This document shows positions 22,623 to 63,598 of a DNA stretch of 64,000 nucleotides, in pieces. A program made the translations under genes and the position numbers. Source of the DNA: an uncultured Acidobacteriota bacterium. GTDB taxonomy: Bacteria > Acidobacteriota > Vicinamibacteria > Vicinamibacterales > UBA2999. Location: positions 2,561,147 through 2,625,146 of the forward strand of contig CAVPVV010000003.1 in the NCBI GenBank assembly GCA_963709325.1, written 5' to 3'. The notes beneath the pieces were generated by a model. The model was given only the letters and a program-made list of their open reading frames with translations, was not told where the DNA came from and did no database searches. The first letter of the stretch is position 1; every line of letters starts with the position of its first letter.

Positions 22623-23564
22623 TCACGCGGCTCCCGTATGCTCGACGACGTCGAGGAAGACGTCCTCGAGCGACGGCATGACCCGACTGACGGATCGCAC
22701 CTCGATGCCGGCGCTGGCCAGAGTGCGCGTCACCGCATCCTCGGGATCCGCGTCGCCGCGCAGCACGGCGTGGACTGCGGTACCAAACAGGCTGGTCTTC
22801 TCCACGACGGGTTGGCGATCGAGCGCTTCCATCGCGGCTACGGGCTGCGCCGCCTGCACCTCGACGATCGGCCGATCGCGGAACACCTGCTTCAATTCCG
22901 TCGTCGTGCCGAGCGCGGCCAGCTTGCCGGCGTGGATGATGGCAATGCGATGGCAGTGTTCGGCCTCGTCGAGATAGTGCGTGGTGACGAGGACGGTCGT
23001 GCCGCCTTCGGACATCTGGTCGATGAGATCCCAGAACTGCCGGCGCGACACCGGGTCTACGCCGCCGGTCGGCTCGTCGAGAAAAACGATCGACGGCTCG
23101 TGGAGAATGGCGCACCCGAGGGCGAGGCGCTGGCGCCACCCGCCGGGCAGGTCGCGGGTCAGCGCGTTCTCGCGGCGCTGCAGTCCAGCCATCTCGAGCA
23201 CGAACCGCCGCCGCTCGGCGAAGCGCTCCCCGTGCAGCCCGTAGATGCCGCCGAAGAATTCGATGTTCTGATCGACCGTGAGCAGCTCGTAGAGCGAGAA
23301 CCGCTGCGACATGTAGCCGATCCGCCGCTTGACGCCCTCCGGATCCTTCGCGACGTCGATACCACCGACCAGCGCGGTGCCGCTCGAGGGCTTGAGGAGC
23401 CCGCACAGCATCCGGATGGTGGTGGACTTGCCGGCGCCATTGGCCCCGAGAAAGCCGAAGATTTCACCGCCCTTGACCGAAAAGGACAGATCGTTCACCG
23501 CGACGAAGTCGCCGAATCGGCGGGTGAGGCCGCGCACGTCGATGGCGCTTGCTGGAGTGGTCAC
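22623..23564 (-). CDS. ABC transporter ATP-binding protein
   Basis: Walker A GANGAGKST, signature LPGGWRQRLAL, Walker B IVFLDEPT. Confidence 0.9.
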   Translation of the reverse strand: MTTPASAIDVRGLTRRFGDFVAVNDLSFSVKGGEIFGFLGANGAGKSTTIRMLCGLLKPSSGTALVGGIDVAKDPEGVKRRIGYMSQRFSLYELLTVDQNIEFFGGIYGLHGERFAERRRFVLEMAGLQRRENALTRDLPGGWRQRLALGCAILHEPSIVFLDEPTGGVDPVSRRQFWDLIDQMSEGGTTVLVTTHYLDEAEHCHRIAIIHAGKLAALGTTTELKQVFRDRPIVEVQAAQPVAAMEALDRQPVVEKTSLFGTAVHAVLRGDADPEDAVTRTLASAGIEVRSVSRVMPSLEDVFLDVVEHTGAA

Positions 23565-24934
23565 GGGCGTCCAAGAGCGCGCTCGAGGCGCGCTTCGGCC
23601 AGCCGGACACCAGCGAGCGCGCGGGCCCGCGCCAGTTCGGCGCCGAGGAGCTGTTCCTGCGCGACGAGGACGTCGGTCGTGGTCGCCACGCCGACGGCAA
23701 GACGCTCGGCCAGCACGCGACGCGCTTCGGCAGACGCGCGCACGCCGGCCTCGGAGGCGCGAACGGCGGCCTGGCTGGATCTGAGATCGAGAAGCCGCTG
23801 CCGGATCTCGGCCGAGACGACGGTGTCGAGCTCTTTCTGTCGCGCGTCGATGGCGCGGGCGGCGGCGGCCGCTTCAGCAACTTCCGCCTTGGTTCGGCCG
23901 CTGTCGAAGATGTTCCACGACATGCTCAGCGACACGTCCCACGACGTCTGCCAGATGTCTTCGCGGGGGAAGATCTTCGGGTTCGGCTTCGCGAAGTCGT
24001 AGCCGCCGCCGAGCGCGAAGTTCGGCCGCCGGCCTTTCGACGCCGCCTCTTCCCGAGCCTGTGCGCCTTCGAAGCGCAAGGCCAGGGCGCGCAGTTCCGG
24101 CCGCTGTTTCAAGGCTTCCGCGACGAGGGGCGCAGTATCTGCCTCGCTCTTTACATTTGTCATGGGGACTGTCCCCTGAGTCGCGGCGGCTCGGGGGACT
24201 GTCCCCCCTGGCGAGTCGAGGCTGTCGGCGAGCTCGATCACGGCGTCGGGCGGGGCGCCGATCAGGCGGCGGAGATCGATCAGGTTCGACTCGAGCAGGT
24301 TGTTCGCTTCGATCAGCTGCAGCTCCTCGCTCGATCGCTGGGCCTCGAAGGTCAGCACGTCGCTTGGCGGAACCAGCCCGACCTCGAGCCGCTGCCGCGC
24401 GTCACCCACCTGCGCGTCAGCGCGGGCGACGCCTTCCTCGAGGACGCGGACCGCTTCGCGTGAGGTGACCACCGCCCAGTAGGCGCGCGTCACCTCGAAA
24501 CGGAGATCGGCTCGCGCGGTATCGAGATCCGCTCCCGCGGCCTCGGCCTCGGCGGAAGCGGCGCGCTCGAGCGCGTCGAGGCGTCCGGCGGTGTAAATCG
24601 GCCACTGCGCGGCAACGCGGGACGTGAAGTTGTCCGGCACGTCCGGGTAGAGGATGTTGAGACGGCCATCCGGGGTTGGAAACCCGAACGGCTCCACGTG
24701 GTTGGTCCGCATGTAACCGGCCATCGCAGATGCGGTCGGGCGCGACGACGACTGCCGGACTTCGACGGTCGCGCGCGCGCCTTCCTGCCGCGCCTCGGCT
24801 TCAGCGAGGCGATGACTGGTCTCAAAGGCGCGGCTGACCGCCTCGCCAACCGTCAGGCGCAGCGGCGGCTCCTGCGCCAGCACCGCCGCAGAACCGGCGA
24901 ACACGAGTGTCACGAACAGGTCGGCGCGGGTCAT
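23561..24934 (-). CDS. TolC-family outer membrane efflux protein
   Basis: 457 aa with a signal peptide and two-repeat OEP architecture. It has 4-nt overlaps with both flanking ATPase genes. Confidence 0.8.
   Translation of the reverse strand: MTRADLFVTLVFAGSAAVLAQEPPLRLTVGEAVSRAFETSHRLAEAEARQEGARATVEVRQSSSRPTASAMAGYMRTNHVEPFGFPTPDGRLNILYPDVPDNFTSRVAAQWPIYTAGRLDALERAASAEAEAAGADLDTARADLRFEVTRAYWAVVTSREAVRVLEEGVARADAQVGDARQRLEVGLVPPSDVLTFEAQRSSEELQLIEANNLLESNLIDLRRLIGAPPDAVIELADSLDSPGGTVPRAAATQGTVPMTNVKSEADTAPLVAEALKQRPELRALALRFEGAQAREEAASKGRRPNFALGGGYDFAKPNPKIFPREDIWQTSWDVSLSMSWNIFDSGRTKAEVAEAAAAARAIDARQKELDTVVSAEIRQRLLDLRSSQAAVRASEAGVRASAEARRVLAERLAVGVATTTDVLVAQEQLLGAELARARALAGVRLAEARLERALGRP
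24164..24208. repeat. Two copies of the palindrome GGGGACTGTCCCC inside the TolC-family CDS (in-frame)
   Basis: Copies at 24164-24176 and 24193-24207. They are translated as PGGTVPRAAATQGTVP. An adjacent unusually AT-rich stretch (acaaatgtaaagag) is also present. Confidence 0.8.
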
Positions 24935-47492: not shown

Positions 47493-49922
47493 ATGCGGAC
47501 GCTCGGCCGAATTCTGTTGGCCCTTCTCGTCCTCATGGCTGGTGTGATCGTCGCCGGCGGCTGTTACACGCGCGCCCAACTGCGCGGCAGCCTGCCGGTG
47601 CTGGACGGCAACATCACGATGAACGGCTTGTCGGCGAAGGTCACGGTGACCCGCGATGCGCTCGGGGTCCCGTCGATCGCCGGCGCGACGCACGCTGACG
47701 TCGCACGGGCGCTGGGCTTCCTTCACGCCCAGGATCGCTTCTTCCAGATGGACCTGCAGCGCCGTCAACCGGCCGGCGAGCTGGCCGCGCTCGTCGGAGC
47801 GCGCGCGGTCCCGGTCGACGCGGAGGTGCGCGTCCACCGCTTTCGACACGTCGCCCAGGAGGCCCTGGCCAAGGCCAGTCCCGAATGGAAGGCGTTGCTC
47901 GAGGCGTACGCTGCCGGCGTGAACGCAGGCCTGCACTCCTTGTCCGCGCCGCCGTTCGAATACCTCCTGCTCCAGGCGACGCCCGAGCCGTGGAAGCCCG
48001 AGGATTCGATCCTCACCGTGCTGGCAATGTTCTGGACGCTGCAGGGACGCCAGGCGGCGTTCGAGGAAACCAACCAGCAACTGCGCGACGCGCTTCCCGA
48101 GCCGCTCTTCCGGTTCCTGGCCGTCGTCGGGTCGGACTGGGACGCGCCTTCAGTCGGTCACCTCGCATCGCGGCCGGCCGTCCCCGGACCGGAGATTGCG
48201 GATCTGCGCGGCAACTCACCGGCAATCAGAGCGGTCGCACACAAGGATGCAAGTGTCGCTGCGGCCGGGACGTTCGACGAGCAGGCCGCGCTGATCGGCT
48301 CGAACAACTGGGCCGTTGACGGAGCGCACAGCGCCACCGGCCGCGCGATTGTCGCCAACGACATGCACCTGTCGATCGGCGTGCCGAACATCTGGTATCG
48401 CGCGTCAATGGCCTGGCCGGATCCGGCGGAGCCACTCGCCACGCTGCGCCTCGGCGGGGTCACGCTTCCAGGGCTCCCGGTCACCGTGGTCGGCAGCAAT
48501 GGACATGTCGCCTGGGGCTTCACCAACACCGGCGGCGACTGGAGCGATCTGGTACGCATCGAGCCGGACCCACGCGATCCGTCGCGCTATCTCACGCCCA
48601 CCGGACCGATGTTGTTCGACCTTGGCGACGAGCAGATTGCGGTCAAGGGCGGGGCTCCGACCACGATCGCGGTGCGCGGCACCATCTGGGGGCCGATCGT
48701 CTGGAAGGACGCCGAGGGGCGAGAGTACGCGCAGCGATGGATCGCGCACGATCTGGCGCTCCTCGCCACCGATCTCGATCGGCCGGAGCGGACGCGAACC
48801 GTGGACGAGATGGTGGTTGCCTTGGTGGGCCTGGGACTGCCGAATCAAAACGTGACCGCGGGGGACTTGAGCGGACGAATTGCCTGGACGGTTGGAGGCG
48901 CGATTCCGAAGCGTCGCGGCTTCGACGGATTCACGCCCGAGTCGTGGGCCGACGGATCGCGCGGGTGGGACGGCTTCCTCGAAGCCGGCGACTACCCACG
49001 GCTCAGCGATCCGAAGGCGGGCCGGCTCTGGACGGCAAATGCGCCGGTGGTGGACGGTCCAGGACTCGCGGCGATTGGAGATGGCGGCTATGCGGACGGC
49101 ATCCGCGCGCGCATCATCCGCGATCGGCTGTTGGAGATTCCGAAAGCGACGCCCGAGCAGATGCTAGGCGTACAGCTCGACAACACCGCGCTCTTTCTCG
49201 AACGGTGGCGCCGTGTCGCGCTCGACGTGCTGGCCGTGGGTGCGGCTGCCTCGCCAGCGGATCGCGCGGCGGCGCGGCGTGAGTTCAAGCGGCTCGTCGA
49301 GACCACGTGGACCGGTCACGCGTCACCTGAATCCGAAGCCTATCGCCTCGTGCGTACTTTCCGCCTGCAGGTCGTGAAACGCGTCCTCACGTTCGTGACC
49401 GCAGCGGCCGCGGCAAAGGACTCGTCGTTCGACTACACGCGCGCGATGCGCACCGAGGGCCCGGTCTGGACGCTCGTGTCCGAGCGCCCGATGCACCTGC
49501 TGGATCCGCAGTTCAGGAACTGGGACGAGCTGCTGCTGGCGGCGGTAGACGCGGCGATCGACGAGCTCACCGAAGGAGGAAAGCCCCTCGCGGGCCGTAC
49601 CTGGGGCGAGTTCAACCGCGCGCTGATCCAGCATCCGCTGTCCAGCGCCGTTCCACAGCTCGGGCGCTGGCTGAACATGCCGCAGGACCCGTTGCCCGGC
49701 GACGCCTACACGCCGCGCGCGCACGCGCCGCGCACCGGTCCGTCCGAGCGCATGGCCGTCTCACCTGGCGACGAAGCGCACGGCATCCTGCACATGCCGA
49801 CCGGCCAGAGCGGCCACCCGCTATCGCCGTACTTCGGCGCCATGCACAAGGCCTGGGTCGACGGGTCGCCAGTGCCGTTCCTCCCCGGCCCTGCTGTTCA
49901 TACGCTGACCTTCGTTCCGTAG
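47493..49922 (+). CDS. Penicillin acylase family Ntn-hydrolase (possible acyl-homoserine-lactone acylase)
   Basis: 809 aa with a signal anchor. The N-terminal nucleophile context is ALIGSNNWAVDGAHSATGRAIVANDMHL. Confidence 0.85.
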   Translation: MRTLGRILLALLVLMAGVIVAGGCYTRAQLRGSLPVLDGNITMNGLSAKVTVTRDALGVPSIAGATHADVARALGFLHAQDRFFQMDLQRRQPAGELAALVGARAVPVDAEVRVHRFRHVAQEALAKASPEWKALLEAYAAGVNAGLHSLSAPPFEYLLLQATPEPWKPEDSILTVLAMFWTLQGRQAAFEETNQQLRDALPEPLFRFLAVVGSDWDAPSVGHLASRPAVPGPEIADLRGNSPAIRAVAHKDASVAAAGTFDEQAALIGSNNWAVDGAHSATGRAIVANDMHLSIGVPNIWYRASMAWPDPAEPLATLRLGGVTLPGLPVTVVGSNGHVAWGFTNTGGDWSDLVRIEPDPRDPSRYLTPTGPMLFDLGDEQIAVKGGAPTTIAVRGTIWGPIVWKDAEGREYAQRWIAHDLALLATDLDRPERTRTVDEMVVALVGLGLPNQNVTAGDLSGRIAWTVGGAIPKRRGFDGFTPESWADGSRGWDGFLEAGDYPRLSDPKAGRLWTANAPVVDGPGLAAIGDGGYADGIRARIIRDRLLEIPKATPEQMLGVQLDNTALFLERWRRVALDVLAVGAAASPADRAAARREFKRLVETTWTGHASPESEAYRLVRTFRLQVVKRVLTFVTAAAAAKDSSFDYTRAMRTEGPVWTLVSERPMHLLDPQFRNWDELLLAAVDAAIDELTEGGKPLAGRTWGEFNRALIQHPLSSAVPQLGRWLNMPQDPLPGDAYTPRAHAPRTGPSERMAVSPGDEAHGILHMPTGQSGHPLSPYFGAMHKAWVDGSPVPFLPGPAVHTLTFVP

Positions 49923-50019
49923 GGGGGACAGTCCCCCTATTCGATCCGACTCAATGGCCTTATACGACACGACTCAGGGGACTGTCCCCCTATGCGACCC
50001 AACTAGGGGGACTGTCCCC
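49923..50019. repeat. Three copies of the palindrome GGGGACWGTCCCC in a 97-nt intergenic array
   Basis: Copies at 49923-49937, 49977-49990 and 50006-50019, with related spacers (CTATTCGATCCGACTCA / CTATGCGACCCAACTA). The array starts immediately after the acylase stop. Confidence 0.85.
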
Positions 50020-50034
50020 AGTTGCGGGTCGCCG

Positions 50035-50538
50035 TCACCAGCGGATGCGGAGCAAGGGGCGGACAGGAGAGGGTGGTGGACTCGTGCCGCCGGGTGGCGC
50101 CGGGCGGACGCGATAGAGAGGCTGACGCGATGTGTTTGCGCGATCGAGCAAGTAACCGACCGTGCCGTACGAGATGACGGCGCTCGCTACGAGGGTTCCC
50201 TGCGACTCGGGCAGCTCCGAGGCAACGAGCAGGCCCATGATCAGGCCGATGGCCGCCCCCTTCAGCGTCCCGTCCAGCGTCGAGTCTCGCACGCGATCGA
50301 CTGTAAACACGGCGTCGCGCTGCATGACGATGGACTGCGCGCCGGTGCTGAACGTCACTTCAAGGTCGTCGGCGTCCACCAGGTTCAGGCGGCGCTCTTG
50401 TCCATTCGCATCGGTGACGTAGACCTCCTGCCCCAGCGCTTTCTGCAGACGGGCAAAATCCGCCAGCCGTGCCGGCGTGAGCGTTGGATCGGGAACCGAC
50501 ATGATCCCGAATATGAGCGGCATGATCAGGTATCCCAT
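50035..50538 (-). CDS. Hypothetical small membrane protein
   Basis: From ORF 50035..50598. ATG 50538 gives MGYLIMPLIFGIMSV (a TM segment), and a second hydrophobic segment GAAIGLIMGLLVA is present. No domain recognised. Confidence 0.45.
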   Translation of the reverse strand: MGYLIMPLIFGIMSVPDPTLTPARLADFARLQKALGQEVYVTDANGQERRLNLVDADDLEVTFSTGAQSIVMQRDAVFTVDRVRDSTLDGTLKGAAIGLIMGLLVASELPESQGTLVASAVISYGTVGYLLDRANTSRQPLYRVRPAPPGGTSPPPSPVRPLLRIRW

Positions 50539-50634
50539 GGCGTCCTCCAGGCTCGAATTCGCGAGCCAGGGCCACGGTAGCCCCCGCGGTAGACGCAAGT
50601 CCTGAGAGCGGCCTGAGAAAGGATGAAGAATCGT

Positions 50635-52086
50635 TCACGCCGCTCGCGACGCGATCGCGACCAGAAGCGGGCGCAGCCGTTCGTGGCCGTGAAGCGGCAG
50701 GAACATCGGATCCGCGGCCAGGCTCCACGCGGTCGGCCCAGCGGGAGCGTCCCTCATCAGCGTATCCAGCGCGTCGCACGCTTCCGCCGGCCGGTCGGTC
50801 CACGCCAGCAGCGCCGCGCGGATGAGCGTGGCGTCCGACGTCTTCGGGCCGGACGACATCTCACCCAGGGCGCGTTCGACGGCCGCTGCGCGAGAACCAG
50901 GGGACAGTCCCCTTACCCTTTTCGCAAGGGGACTGTCCCCACTTGCCAGATGCAGGCCGAGGGCGCCGCGGGCCGCGCCGGGATTCAGCGACTCTGCCAG
51001 CTCGAACGCGGTCGCAGCTTCCTGACGCTGGCCGAGCCGGACATGATGGAAGCCGGCCGAGGTCGCCGCCAGCCACTGGAACTCGCGCGCGAACAGCCCT
51101 GACGGGCTCTGCTCCGTCTCGGCTGCAAACGCGGCGACCGCCTCGTCCATTCGATCGGTGGCGGTCGCCACTAAACCTCGCATCCAGTGCAGGCCCGCCA
51201 CCGGCAGCACTGCTGTCCCGGGCTGCGCGTCCTGGATGCGCGCGCCGGCGTCGGCTTCGGCGCCAGCCCGATCCCACGCGCCGCGGGCGACGAACACCAT
51301 CGCCGACAGCAGGTGGGCCGCGGCGCACGACGGCGACAAGGCCAGCGCACGATCGGCCGCCCGCAGACGGTCCTCGCCCCAGCACGCCAGCGCCAGTCGA
51401 AATTGGTGGCGCCAGCTGTCCGGCTCCAGCGCCACCGCCCGCCGCGCCGCTGCCTGCGCATCGTCACGCCGGCCAGCCAGCGCCTGCGCGTGTGCCATCA
51501 CCGCCCAAGCCTCGCCGAGGCGCGGGTCGATCTCGGCAGCTCGCCGCGCCGCGGCGAGCGCCGCCTGCACGAGCGCCATGTCCGGACGGTTCGTCAATCG
51601 CGTGGCTTCGAACCCGACAACGCACGCGTTGGCGACGCCGGCGTGAGCCGGCGCGTAGTCGGGCATTGCCGTCGCGGCCGCCTCCATCGCCGCGCGGGCC
51701 TCAACGAGGCGGGTTGGATCGAGCGACTCGAGGGCAAGGCGGCCCTCCACCCAGAGCCGGAACGGATCACCGCTCGCGGCCTCAGTGGCCGACACCCCGA
51801 TGAACCGGTAGCCGCGCCTCGCCAGCGTCTGGATCACCCGCGGCTGGTCGGCGGGATCGCCGAGCGCCTTCCGGATGTCGGCGATCGCCCGCGCCAGCGT
51901 GTTCTCGGTGACGTGCACGTCGGGCCAGAAGCGATCGAGCAGCTCCTCTTTCGTAGCGATCGCGCCGTTGCGCTCGACCAGGTAAACGAGGATCTCGACC
52001 AGCCGCGGCGACAGTTCGATCGGGTCGCCGTCGCGGGACAGCGTCCACGTCCGGATGTCAACGGCAAACGGCCCGAAGCGAACCAT
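50635..52086 (-). CDS. OmpR/PhoB-type winged-helix DNA-binding protein fused to a TPR/BTAD-like domain
   Basis: N-terminus is FGPFAVDIRTWTLSRDGDPIELSPRLVEILVYLVERNGAIATKEELLDRFWPD...TLARRGYRF. The rest is alpha-helical repeats. Confidence 0.8.
   Translation of the reverse strand: MVRFGPFAVDIRTWTLSRDGDPIELSPRLVEILVYLVERNGAIATKEELLDRFWPDVHVTENTLARAIADIRKALGDPADQPRVIQTLARRGYRFIGVSATEAASGDPFRLWVEGRLALESLDPTRLVEARAAMEAAATAMPDYAPAHAGVANACVVGFEATRLTNRPDMALVQAALAAARRAAEIDPRLGEAWAVMAHAQALAGRRDDAQAAARRAVALEPDSWRHQFRLALACWGEDRLRAADRALALSPSCAAAHLLSAMVFVARGAWDRAGAEADAGARIQDAQPGTAVLPVAGLHWMRGLVATATDRMDEAVAAFAAETEQSPSGLFAREFQWLAATSAGFHHVRLGQRQEAATAFELAESLNPGAARGALGLHLASGDSPLAKRVRGLSPGSRAAAVERALGEMSSGPKTSDATLIRAALLAWTDRPAEACDALDTLMRDAPAGPTAWSLAADPMFLPLHGHERLRPLLVAIASRAA
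50900..50940. repeat. Two copies of GGGGACWGTCCCC inside the wHTH-TPR regulator CDS (in-frame)
   Basis: Copies at 50900-50912 and 50928-50940. They are translated as SGDSPLAKRVRGLSPG, a different reading frame through the palindrome than in the TolC gene. Confidence 0.8.
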
Positions 52087-60277: not shown

Positions 60278-63200
60278 GTGCCCCGGATGACACCCCGCTT
60301 CCTGTTCGTCGCGCTGTTTGCCGTAATCACCGCCGGAGCGTCCTTGACCGGCGGCGCCGTGCAGCCCGGCGCACTCAGCCTGGTTCTCGAAGCGGCTGAC
60401 GCCGCGCCAGCCGGACGCGCGCTCGCGGCTATCGCCGCCGCGCCGGAAACGGTGCAATCGCGCGCAGTCGTGGTCAACCTTGCCGCGCTGAACGCCGACG
60501 CCGTTGACATTGCCGTATCGCCGGGCCGCACCGTGCGGGCGGTCTTGGCGCAAAGGACCGCACTGCCGGGCGGAGGCGAAGCCTGGTCGGGTCAGGTCGC
60601 CGACGCGCCGCTCAGCGCCGCGACGTTCGTTCGGGCAGGCGCGATCCTTCAAGGCTCGATACGCACGCTCGACGCCGCCTACTCAATCGAGCCAATCGGC
60701 GGCACCGGGCTGCACGCGATTCGCGAGCTCGATCTCGCTCAACTTGGGCCCGAGCTGCCTTCGAGAGTGCCGCCCGCGCTGCCGGCGGCATTGGACGAGC
60801 CGCAGCGCGAAGCCGACGACGGCGCCATTTTCGACCTGCTCGTCTTGTATACGCCGGCCGCGCGCACAGCCGCTGGTGGTACGGATGGCGCCATTCAGTC
60901 GCGGATCAACCTGGGCGTCACCGAGACGAACACGGCCTACGCGAACAGCGGCATCGTTCCGCGCCTGCGTCTCGTCGGCGCCGAGCTGGTGAGCTACACG
61001 GAGCGCGGCGATCTCAGCCTCGATCTGGACGCCCTGACCAACCCCAGCGACGGTTTCATGGATGCCGTGCACGCCCGCCGCGACGCACTCGGCGCCGACC
61101 TCGTCAAGCTGGTGGTCGGTGACACCGCGGGCGGCGCCTGCGGCGTGGCGTGGCTGATGAACACGCTCACCACGAGCTTCGCCACCTACGCCTTCAGCGT
61201 CAGCGCCTACCCGTGCATCAGCCCGAACTACACGTTCGGCCACGAGCTGGGTCACAACATGGGGTCGAACCACGCGCCCGACGATGGGGTGAACAACACG
61301 CCGTTGTATCCCTACTCATTCGGGTACAAGCACCCCTCGAACCTGTTCAGGACGGTGATGGCCTACAACTGCGGCGGCAGCGGCTGCCCTCGCATCCTGT
61401 ACTTCTCGAACCCCTCGGTGCTCTACAACGGCTCGCCGACCGGGACGGTCCCGCAACACAACAACGCGCTGTCGATCAACAACGCGCGGACGACGGTCGC
61501 CAACTTCCGGCAGGCAGTTGCCGTCAACACGGCGCCGACGATTACCGCGATCGCCAACCGGACGATACCCGAGGACACGTCGACGGGGACGATACCCTTC
61601 ACCATCGGCGACGCACAGACCGCGTCCGGGAGCCTGGTGGTGACCGCAATGTCGTCCAACCCCGCGGTGGTAGCCAACACGGCCGCGGGCCTCGCCCTTG
61701 GCGGTACGACCAGCGCGCGGACGCTCGTCGTGACGCCCCAGCCCGACGCCAACGGCTACTCGACGATCGGCGTGACCGTCAGCGACGGCTCGCTCAGCGC
61801 GACCTCGACGTTCGTGCTCACGGTGACGAGTGAGAACGATCCGCCGGTGATGTCGGCCATCGGTGCGCAGACGATGAACGAGGACGAGTCGCTCTCGATT
61901 CCATTCACGGTGACCGACGTGGACAACCCGGCCAGCGCCCTTGTCGTCCAGGCGTCGTCGGCGAATACAGCGCTGATCGACGCGAGCGGCATCGCGCTCG
62001 GCGGCAGCGGCCAGTCGCGCGTCCTCACGCTGACACCGGTCGCCAACGAATCGGGCCTGGCGACGCTGACGGTGACGGTGAGCGACGGTACGGCGAGCGC
62101 GCAGCGCACGTTCACGGTGACGGTGACGCCGGTGAACGATGCCCCCGCGTTTGTCTCGTTGCCGCCGCTTGTCTCGACCACCGCCGGACAGCCCGCGACC
62201 TTGACCGTCACGCTGACCGATCCCGACACCAGCGGATCGGCGATCGCGCTCGGCGTCGCGAGCAACAACCCGGTTGTATTGCCGCAGTCCGGAGTTCTCG
62301 TCGTGCCAGTGTCGTCGACTGCGTCTTCGCGGACGTTCCAGGTGACGCTGACGCCGGCGCTGGGGCAGACCGGCACGAGCCTGCTGACCTTCACGGCCAG
62401 TGACGGCCTGGCGAACAGGACGGCGCCGGTCAGCTTCAGCGTAACTACCGTCGCCTCGGCCCCGGATCCGCCAACGGCGCTGTCGGCGACGGCGAACGGA
62501 ACGGATGTCACCTTCTCGTGGGCACCTGCCCTCACCGGCACGGTTCCCACCAGTTTCACGCTCGAGATCGGCACGGCCGCCGGGACGACGACGCTGCCGA
62601 CGCAGTCGGTCCCCTGGCCCACGACCCGGCTGACGCTGCCGCTGCCAGGCGGCACGTATCACGCGCGCGTCCGCGCCGTGAACGGGATCGGGTCGAGCAC
62701 ACCCTCGCCCGAGGCGACGATCGTCGTGGATGTGCCGACTCCGATTCCGGGACCTCCGGGCAACTTCTCGGCTACGGTGTCGGGCCGGAACGTGTCGTTT
62801 TTGTGGACGGCGTCCACGGCCGGCATGGCCGCAACGAGCTACACGATCGAGGCGGGCAGCGCGCCCGGCTTGTCCGATCTCGCGCGCCTGGCCACCGGCA
62901 CGCCGGCCACCACCTTCAGCGTCCCGAACGTGCCGCCGGGAACGTATTGGGTGCGGGTACGTGGATCGAACGACGCCGGGACAGGCGCGCCCTCGCAGGA
63001 CGTCGCGATCGTGATGAGCACGACGAGCGGCTGCGCCGGTCTGCCCGGATCGCCGGTGCTCCTCACGCCTGTCATCGACGGATTCAACGTCTCGCTGAAC
63101 TGGAACACGCCGTCATTCGGCGGGCGCGTGATGCAGTACGTGCTGTTGGCCGGCTCGGCGCCAGGACTGTCGAACCTCGCGGTGGTCAATACCGGCAACG

Positions 63201-63598
63201 CTGCAACTTCATTCGCCGCGTCGGCACCGGCCGGCGCGTACTATGTGCGAGTGGCCGCGTCGAACGCGTGTGGAACCGGCCCGGTGTCCAACGAAGTGAC
63301 CTTCTCGATCGGCTCGGCGATTCCTGAAGCGCCGATCGACCTCGCGGCTACCGTCGGCTCGAACGGCTTCGTCTCACTCACCTGGTCGCCGCCAGCATCG
63401 GGTGTGTCGCCAAGTGGTTATCTGCTCGAAGCCGGAAGCGCACTCGGCATGTCCGACCTCGCCACGCTCGCGACCGGATCGACGGCGACCACTTTTTCCG
63501 CAACGGCACAGCCAGGACGCTACTACGTCCGCGTCCGCGCGCTGACCGCCGGAGGGCCTGGGCCCGCCTCGAACGAAGTCGTCGTCGACGTCCCCTGA
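60278..63598 (+). CDS. Secreted reprolysin-like (M12B-type) zinc metalloprotease fused to three cadherin-like ~95-aa repeats and four FN3-like repeats
   Basis: Signal peptide MPRMTPRFLFVALFAVITAGA. HELGHNMGSNH (nt 61241-) plus the Met-turn RTVMAY. Repeats are delimited by N-D/T-A/P-P motifs (VNTAPT, ENDPPV, VNDAPA). The C-terminal modules end in ..VRVRAVNGIGSS.., ..VRVRGSNDAGTG.., ..VRVAASNACGTG.., ..VRVRALTAGGPG... Confidence 0.8.
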   Translation: MPRMTPRFLFVALFAVITAGASLTGGAVQPGALSLVLEAADAAPAGRALAAIAAAPETVQSRAVVVNLAALNADAVDIAVSPGRTVRAVLAQRTALPGGGEAWSGQVADAPLSAATFVRAGAILQGSIRTLDAAYSIEPIGGTGLHAIRELDLAQLGPELPSRVPPALPAALDEPQREADDGAIFDLLVLYTPAARTAAGGTDGAIQSRINLGVTETNTAYANSGIVPRLRLVGAELVSYTERGDLSLDLDALTNPSDGFMDAVHARRDALGADLVKLVVGDTAGGACGVAWLMNTLTTSFATYAFSVSAYPCISPNYTFGHELGHNMGSNHAPDDGVNNTPLYPYSFGYKHPSNLFRTVMAYNCGGSGCPRILYFSNPSVLYNGSPTGTVPQHNNALSINNARTTVANFRQAVAVNTAPTITAIANRTIPEDTSTGTIPFTIGDAQTASGSLVVTAMSSNPAVVANTAAGLALGGTTSARTLVVTPQPDANGYSTIGVTVSDGSLSATSTFVLTVTSENDPPVMSAIGAQTMNEDESLSIPFTVTDVDNPASALVVQASSANTALIDASGIALGGSGQSRVLTLTPVANESGLATLTVTVSDGTASAQRTFTVTVTPVNDAPAFVSLPPLVSTTAGQPATLTVTLTDPDTSGSAIALGVASNNPVVLPQSGVLVVPVSSTASSRTFQVTLTPALGQTGTSLLTFTASDGLANRTAPVSFSVTTVASAPDPPTALSATANGTDVTFSWAPALTGTVPTSFTLEIGTAAGTTTLPTQSVPWPTTRLTLPLPGGTYHARVRAVNGIGSSTPSPEATIVVDVPTPIPGPPGNFSATVSGRNVSFLWTASTAGMAATSYTIEAGSAPGLSDLARLATGTPATTFSVPNVPPGTYWVRVRGSNDAGTGAPSQDVAIVMSTTSGCAGLPGSPVLLTPVIDGFNVSLNWNTPSFGGRVMQYVLLAGSAPGLSNLAVVNTGNAATSFAASAPAGAYYVRVAASNACGTGPVSNEVTFSIGSAIPEAPIDLAATVGSNGFVSLTWSPPASGVSPSGYLLEAGSALGMSDLATLATGSTATTFSATAQPGRYYVRVRALTAGGPGPASNEVVVDVP

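Follow-up and report, generated by a model that had tools for sequence, protein, structure and literature searches.

A short palindromic doublet, probably of the REP type, inserted in frame in a winged-helix regulator gene of a Vicinamibacterales bacterium

The described repeats closest to the element reported here are the repetitive extragenic palindromic (REP) sequences and their hairpin-forming doublets, the REPINs. REP doublets are better conserved than singlets (PMC3116915), and a gene for a REP-associated tyrosine transposase (RAYT) flanked by its own REPs is the signature of a REP-RAYT system (PMC3116915, PMC5581495). Two further groups come into question. According to PMC10969869, the palindromic elements of Rickettsia (RPEs; Ogata et al. 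2000, 2002) are ~100-150 bp long and each family encodes a conserved peptide, and the MITEs, or miniature inverted-repeat transposable elements, measure 100-300 bp and have terminal inverted repeats and often target-site duplications, as in ERIC, BOX, QMITE1 and the Anabaena MITEs (PMC10969869; Delihas 2007, PMC2759123). We analysed a window of 64,000 nucleotides from an uncultured Acidobacteriota bacterium of the Vicinamibacterales (assembly GCA_963709325.1, contig CAVPVV010000003.1), in which a pair of 13-nt palindromes lies within the gene of a regulator with an OmpR-type winged helix and tetratricopeptide repeats (TPR). This segment is probably a dispersed REP-type palindromic repeat with the core GGGGACWGTCCCC, inserted in frame as a REPIN-like doublet, whose family would be spread by a RAYT. 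The features of the locus are the following.

50635 to 52086, minus strand: host gene, an OmpR-type winged-helix (Trans_reg_C) and TPR regulator of 483 aa, assigned from Pfam, homologues, AlphaFold2 and Foldseek.
50899 to 50940, minus strand: insertion of 42 nt (14 codons) encoding GDSPLAKRVRGLSP, residues 383-396.
50900 to 50912, plus-strand reading: arm 1, GGGGACAGTCCCC, the second arm in the direction of the gene, translated as (R)GLSP and invariant in the four carriers.
50913 to 50927: spacer or hairpin loop of 15 nt, the outer two bases of which lengthen the stem on each side.
50928 to 50940, plus-strand reading: arm 2, GGGGACTGTCCCC, the first arm in the direction of the gene, translated as GDSP and invariant in the four carriers.

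The two 13-mers, separated by the spacer ttacccttttcgcaa, are mutual reverse complements that differ solely by the central A or T, and because of this complementarity the pair is a single hairpin with two arms and a perfect stem of 13 bp. Folding lengthened the stem to 15-17 bp with a loop of 7 nt and gave energies of -34.7 kcal/mol for the plus strand and -37.3 kcal/mol for the minus strand (z of -5.6 and -6.2), and none of 200 shuffles folded equally well. The minus-strand open reading frame (ORF) reads ...LASGDSPLAKRVRGLSPGSR... around the element, the longer peptide that spans it being ...LHLASGDSPLAKRVRGLSPGSRAAAVERAL... The 13-mer contains no stop codon in any of the six frames and yields core peptides rich in Gly, Pro and Ser (GDSP, GTVP, GQS, GDCP and GLS), and the complete 41-nt element is open in five of the six frames. 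A preliminary description of this DNA had given the positions and letters of the two palindromes and their reading as GDSP and GLSP, as opposed to GTVP in a TolC gene of the same window, and all of this proved exact. What is added here is the single hairpin, the apparently old insert of shared descent and its subsequent loss in one lineage.

The core GGGGACWGTCCCC occurs seven times in the window, in three clusters that start at 24164/24194, 49924/49977/50007 and 50900/50928, and further copies were found at orthologous and other sites in the related loci L001, L004, L006 and L142. Among the 13-nt palindromes in the window it is the only one with more than two copies. Shuffles that preserve dinucleotides gave a mean of 0.08 copies and a maximum of one, and none of 100 shuffles reached seven. 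A palindrome arising by chance might be suspected in a genome with 67.6% GC, or an artefact of sequencing or assembly, but the excess of seven copies over the 0.08 expected, together with the presence of the insert in independent assemblies from JGI and ENA, stands against both; this explanation is refuted and we give it practically no credence.

The doublet of the regulator was absent from most relatives of the gene. Homologues of the regulator numbered 752, those named belonging to the Acidobacteriota or Vicinamibacterales, and among 27 aligned homologues GDSPLAKRVRGLSP was found solely in the query, P0001 (92% identical), P0002 (78%) and P0003 (75%), the regulators of these carriers being ~75-93% identical. 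The 23 remaining homologues, including P0004 with 74% identity, are free of the insert, and many of them have 469 aa, that is 483 minus 14. In the direction of the gene the insertion reads GGGGACAGTCCCC-TTGCGAAAAGGGTAA-GGGGACTGTCCCC-T; the empty site of L005 is GCG GGT|GGC CTG, where the carriers have 42 additional nucleotides, and since TGG is present at each end, the exact junction is ambiguous by as many as 3 nt. The spacers of the carriers (window, L001, L006 and L004) are homologous (TTGCGAAAAGGGTAA, TGACGAAAAGAGCAG, TGACAAAAAGTGACA and TGACGAAAAGTGTCA, with the pattern xCxAAAAGxGxx), whereas those of the remaining copies in the window are unrelated to the regulator spacer, and the insert therefore arose a single time and has been passed on since. 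These comparisons point to one old insertion in the ancestor of a Vicinamibacterales sub-clade, followed by vertical descent to at least four lineages.

In Pfam the regulator matches the winged-helix family Trans_reg_C (7e-17) as well as TPR, and in Foldseek comparisons with the PDB its fold resembles TPR superhelices such as OGT (1w3b). Downstream of the insert, the 87 C-terminal residues are still in frame and conserved in the alignment of homologues (A1). The AlphaFold2 model built from this alignment had a mean predicted local distance difference test score (pLDDT) of 90.1 and a predicted template modelling score of 0.76, and placed residues 383-396 between the helices 372-381 and 398-411; the pLDDT fell to ~63 over the block 381-400 and below 50 at 387-391. 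Between two anchors of the alignment, ~9 residues are found in insert-free homologues versus 23 in the window. Given the low pLDDT between confident helices and this gain in length, the insert is therefore predicted to be a surface loop expansion joining TPR helices. The preliminary description had proposed that a nucleic-acid element was inserted and that a loop in the TPR part of the protein tolerates it. The insertion is borne out by the 23 homologues without it and their frequent length of 469 aa, and the loop by its predicted position between helices at low pLDDT; the homologues from contigs free of the repeat (L005, L138/L147 and L146) also lack the segment and so do not contradict the proposal. 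A distant homologue, P0037, has an unrelated insertion of its own of 8-10 residues (ALSQTGDL..., columns 430-450 of A1) in the same inter-helix loop. Judged from the alignment, this loop appears generally tolerant of length change.

Nucleotide conservation within the insert and outside it was compared in the four carriers. Both arms were invariant at all their positions (26/26), eight of which are third-codon positions, whereas in the whole gene 162 of 467 third positions (35%) and ~80% of first and second positions were invariant. Invariant windows of 13 nt numbered 21 of 1353, and invariant runs of at least 14 nt numbered seven, two of which are the arms, each with the following T, and the other five of which coincide with the most conserved protein motifs. 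The spacer varied at ~7 of 15 positions and the residues that it encodes differ from one carrier to another (AKRVR, TKRAG, TKSDR and TKSVR). One change in the extension of the stem was compensatory, TT..AA in the window corresponding to TG..CA in L004 and L006, and both changes are synonymous. The GC content at third codon positions was 57% in the insert versus 84% elsewhere (P = 0.014), and GTA, GGA and CCT serve as codons, within this gene, in the insert alone. With the arms frozen amid variable third positions and a variable spacer, the sequences point to a constraint on DNA or RNA and not on the peptide. This agrees with the proposal of the preliminary description that the conserved entity is the DNA palindrome, which gains from the invariance of the arms, from the use of codons and from the fact that the same 13-mer is read in three frames in two genes.

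The contrary explanation, according to which a Gly/Pro-rich linker or a short linear motif is selected in the protein and the palindromic DNA is its by-product, would agree with an insert that is in frame and kept in four lineages, and with the wide occurrence of GTVP among TolC homologues. It does not agree with arms that yield GDSP and GLSP here and GTVP in TolC, nor with eight of eight synonymous arm positions being frozen, in rare codons, while the residues encoded by the spacer vary; moreover, the segment is absent from 23 of 27 homologues, has been lost from one lineage and is modelled with low confidence. We consider this explanation largely refuted and very improbable.

The locus has also changed after the insertion. 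The lineage of P0001 (L001-L003 and L143-L145) contains a third unit of 27 nt (9 aa), in frame beside the first arm; the P0001 regulator, the closest relative of that in the window, accordingly has 492 aa and three palindromes, and the extra unit is GGGGACAGTCCCCTTATGGATCCGTCG (L001:3106-3173). Considered together with a 30-nt unit gained in TolC (see below), this suggests that new units arise beside existing ones. A change in the opposite direction was seen in L150, a metagenome fragment encoding the 160 C-terminal aa of the regulator, with an identity to the window of 78% across 147 columns, compared with 70% for the carrier P0002 and 67% for the carrier P0003. All of 500 bootstraps united L150 with the window and P0001, and in none of the 500 did the carriers without L150 form a monophyletic group. 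Nevertheless, L150:160-290 is without palindrome and its loop (LHL-ITKDVGRV-ERA) is near the ancestral length. As L150 nests within the carrier clade yet is without the insert, the simplest reading of these sequences is a secondary, in-frame loss in its lineage. This loss is read from the phylogeny and no footprint is claimed, pairwise alignments of the L150 loop with the old spacer being ambiguous, with several equally good placements. The insert-free P0004 grouped weakly with P0003 in a neighbour-joining tree, the split excluding P0004 being found in 304 of 500 bootstraps; P0004 may have lacked the insert from the outset or may likewise have lost it. Since L150 lost the insert and the rest of its gene is intact, the insert appears to be dispensable.

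The other two clusters of the window are the following.

24164 to 24206, within the minus-strand gene 23561 to 24934: pair of palindromes 30 nt apart in the TolC/OEP gene, both translated as GTVP.
49924 to 50019: intergenic cluster of three copies, the A-form at 49924 and the T-form at 49977 and 50007.

In TolC, a 30-nt unit (10 aa) is limited to the window, P0121 and P0122, and the second copy is older and widely shared, decaying to GAVP, GTIP or GTVT in homologues. The contrast between the invariant doublet of the regulator and this decaying singlet fits the published pattern of REPINs (PMC3116915). In the ~45 kb available from the genome of L138, L140 and L147 there was no exact palindrome; its regulator is insert-free and its TolC copy (L140) is mutated to GGGCACAGTCCCC, one mismatch away from the core. 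Copies being mutated or absent in these ~45 kb, intact copies thus accompany the genomes that have the palindrome family. In the plus-strand ORF 60278 to 63598 (1106 aa) of the window, CGGGACGGTCCCG at 61441-61453 has a central G and is likewise translated as GTVP; it was not counted as a copy, because an estimate from base composition gives ~0.3 chance occurrences of such 11-mer cores. It may be a coincidence or a decayed copy.

The intergenic cluster is flanked by two convergent 3' ends, those of a penicillin amidase gene (47493 to 49922, plus strand) and of a conserved gene of ~167 aa (50035 to 50598, minus strand), and the order purE, purK, regulator, ~167-aa gene and convergent penicillin amidase is kept in relatives. 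The first extended palindrome of the cluster, TAGGGGGGACAGTCCCCCTA, contains the amidase stop codon TAG (49920-49922). In L001 and L004 the orthologous intergenic copies, in contrast to the arms within the gene, contain mismatches or have C at their centre.

The position between convergent 3' ends is a common place for stabilising hairpins, and the palindromes could be host functional sites selected in place, either operators or hairpins for the stability or processing of mRNA, the copy in the regulator acting on the expression of its own gene. A stem kept by one compensatory change and arms no less conserved than the best-kept coding motifs in the gene would both be expected under such a role. 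However, the L150 lineage deleted the insert and kept the remaining gene intact, most orthologues are without the insert, and the settings of the copies (a loop of TolC, a loop of the regulator and a stretch between genes) are unrelated. Nor did a search of both strands of 49700-51200 reveal a T-tract terminator or a promoter, and Rfam 15 gave no match at the gathering threshold for the window and 10 loci, with only chance-level miRNA hits in 49850-51050. In a literature search, the only matches to the exact 13-mer and 11-mer were primers or oligonucleotides from eukaryotic work that is unrelated. A host site as the origin of the element is improbable in our view; a host use gained after the insertion would, however, be compatible with a REP-type doublet.

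The arrangement of the copies also bears on whether the element could be a MITE. The 13-mers would then be terminal inverted repeats, moved in a cut-and-paste manner by a DDE transposase encoded elsewhere and leaving a short target-site duplication. The inverted arms do delimit a unit of 41 nt, the insert has TGG at each junction (AG[TGG]GGAC...CCCC[TGG]TTC), and in-frame insertions of MITEs are on record (PMC10969869). On the other hand, each arm is itself palindromic, and arms also stand alone or form direct pairs and tandem arrays, with variable spacing; such variable arrangements are a poor fit to an element with fixed ends. The other copies in the window show no duplication, a TGG of 3 nt is compatible with chance, and the transposases adjoining the 13-mer in other genomes are of the Y1/RAYT type and not DDE enzymes, no matching insertion sequence having been seen. 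With its palindromic core of 13 nt, variable spacing and no clear duplication, the element differs from the intragenic MITEs, and we regard this origin as improbable beside a REP-type doublet.

To look beyond the Vicinamibacterales, 185,579 species genomes were scanned for two copies of the palindrome within 10-40 nt, which gave at least 119 stretches. Among the matches listed were Acidobacteriota, Planctomycetota, Bacillota, Actinomycetota, Bacteroidota, Pseudomonadota, Verrucomicrobiota, Omnitrophota and Patescibacteria, with doublets or tandem arrays of GGGGACWGTCCCC (loci L007-L125) in Planctomycetota, Coriobacteriia, Bacillaceae, Lachnospiraceae, Prevotella, Omnitrophota, Patescibacteria, Kiritimatiellia, Actinomycetes and Proteobacteria; in these listed matches the 13-mer was constant and its flanks were lineage-specific, mostly lengthening the palindrome. 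A ~75-nt element, gaaaaaGGGGACAGTCCCCatttgtgcgaagcaccctccgggccgttccggcaaatGGGGACTGTCCCCttttt, with a conserved spacer was observed in metagenome-assembled genomes (MAGs) of Planctomycetes (L008, L037, L039, L095, L098, L105, L119 and L124), for which Rfam contained no family when L008 and L037 were examined.

Candidate RAYT genes were sought among the loci of the scan as ORFs with palindromes on both sides. One such ORF, L057:3411-4157 (minus strand) from a Eubacterium MAG, has a palindrome on each side, matched PF01797 (Y1_Tnp) at 1e-13 and scored 79.6 bits (cut-off 80; E 2e-22) against NF047646, "REP-associated tyrosine transposase". The HUH and Y motifs are present in its product and in relatives of this protein. 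A RAYT-like gene of Planctomycetota, L102:491-1120 (minus strand), also has palindromes on both sides, and those of Neobacillus (L080:6108-6665) and Kiritimatiellae (L021:546-1088) have one on a single side. A further homologue, P0254 (L157:3001-3708), has tgtacaaatGGGGACAGTCCCCatttgtaca upstream and the T-form of tgtacaaatGGGGACAGTCCCCatttgtaca downstream of its gene. Four RAYT loci in ~0.9 Mb from ~100 genomes are, by a rough estimate for a single-copy gene, well above chance. We infer that a RAYT spreads the family from the Clostridia and Planctomycetota, where RAYT genes have the 13-mer on both sides, and from the Bacilli and Kiritimatiellae, where it adjoins them; for the Vicinamibacterales lineage, the enzyme would thus be deduced from those of other phyla.

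The number of phyla is to be read against a high background. In viral contigs the palindrome pair was found at 5 loci, compared with 1, 6 and 0 for the control pairs GGGGCAWTGCCCC, GGGGTCWGACCCC and GGGGAGWCTCCCC, so that the target does not stand out from these controls. In 882 kb of genome loci, 3 other pairs of 13-mer palindromes were found, from which, as a rough extrapolation, hundreds of matches per palindrome are possible in 596 Gb. In view of these weak controls and this base rate, no enrichment of the 13-mer across phyla is claimed.

The sequences show the following succession of events. A REPIN-like doublet of two inverted cores and a spacer of 15 nt, which make up one hairpin, entered the coding sequence of the regulator as 42 nt in an ancestor of the sub-clade, at a turn between TPR helices. 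It then passed by vertical descent to at least four lineages, one of which added a 27-nt unit, and a further lineage appears to have deleted the insert in frame; the arms stayed constant in their nucleotides and the spacer and flanking codons drifted. The RAYT, a Y1 HUH enzyme, would recognise the hairpin on single-stranded DNA and so spread the family, and the constancy of the arms would reflect selection on the hairpin or recognition site, exerted either by the repeat system or by a use of the hairpin in host mRNA or DNA.

With REPs and REPINs (Bertels and Rainey 2011, PMC3116915; PMC3337134; PMC5581495) the element shares an over-represented short palindrome, an inverted doublet folding into a hairpin whose spacer is less conserved than its arms, clusters that expand beside existing copies, doublets that outlast singlets in conservation and, in other genomes, a single Y1 RAYT gene flanked by the 13-mer. 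It is, however, shorter, with a core of 13 nt and a doublet of 41 nt as compared with the 71 and 110 bp by which next neighbours are spaced in P. fluorescens (PMC3116915). The copies of the regulator and of TolC are intragenic and in frame, and only the cluster at 49924-50019 is intergenic. The identical core moreover recurs in many phyla, whereas the described REP sequences are, to our knowledge, lineage-specific.

The RPEs are the closest parallel for the position within genes. As described in PMC10969869, they too are in-frame palindromic repeats in unrelated genes, at sites predicted to suit the fold and leaving the protein intact, and they too are inherited by related species. Compared with the RPEs, the insert is shorter (42 nt), its frames differ between genes and its nucleotide arms are conserved instead of a peptide; the host is a member of the Acidobacteriota, and there is no sequence relationship. 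In function the copy in the regulator resembles an RPE but is not one.

Several observations weigh against a REP-type doublet spread by a RAYT. The seven copies share no fixed flanking tetranucleotide and no tag of the GTAG type, the sole GTAG lying at 49919-49922 and containing a stop codon, although seven copies are a small sample in this respect, and two of the three clusters of the window are intragenic, though REPs are by definition extragenic. Neither the 64-kb window nor the loci analysed from Vicinamibacterales yielded a RAYT by tblastn and by a hidden Markov model built from 120 RAYT homologues. A search of a protein database gave thousands of RAYTs, and none of the best 120 was labelled Vicinamibacterales. 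P0280 (L156), which is 56% identical to the enzyme of L102, is without a nearby palindrome, and the pairing of RAYT and palindrome is thus not universal. Finally, the evidence for the constancy of the arms comes from four carrier lineages and one compensatory change. With these points included, we still regard the REP-type doublet as the probable identity of the segment.

On a wider view, GGGGACWGTCCCC may be a REP core common to several phyla and recognised by a widespread RAYT lineage, in which case in-frame copies would be no inert passengers: as long as the system persists, their nucleotides would be actively preserved, and after its disappearance they would degenerate or be removed. Intragenic REPINs would then form a maintained, perhaps regulatory, layer in coding sequence. 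We mention this as a speculation that is more likely wrong than right. Should the sharing of the 13-mer and of RAYTs across phyla exceed chance, it would indicate a conserved recognition code for the RAYT family.

The class of phenomenon is known, and what is informative here is the series of gain, growth and loss, the strict conservation of nucleotides in a coding loop and the possible cross-phylum core. REP and REPIN repeats have been treated as extragenic, and in-frame palindromic insertions have so far been mostly a matter of Rickettsia. The present locus suggests that a very short REP-type doublet is able to enter the coding sequence of a free-living soil Acidobacterium and to persist there while the regulator diverges to ~75% amino-acid identity, with its arms frozen and its loop drifting. 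One locus and one repeat would thereby provide a dated series of gain, growth and in-frame loss, and a clean example of selection on nucleic acid within a protein-coding region. Such inserts would also account for lineage-specific Gly/Pro-rich loops (GDSP, GTVP and GLSP) in proteins predicted from metagenomes.

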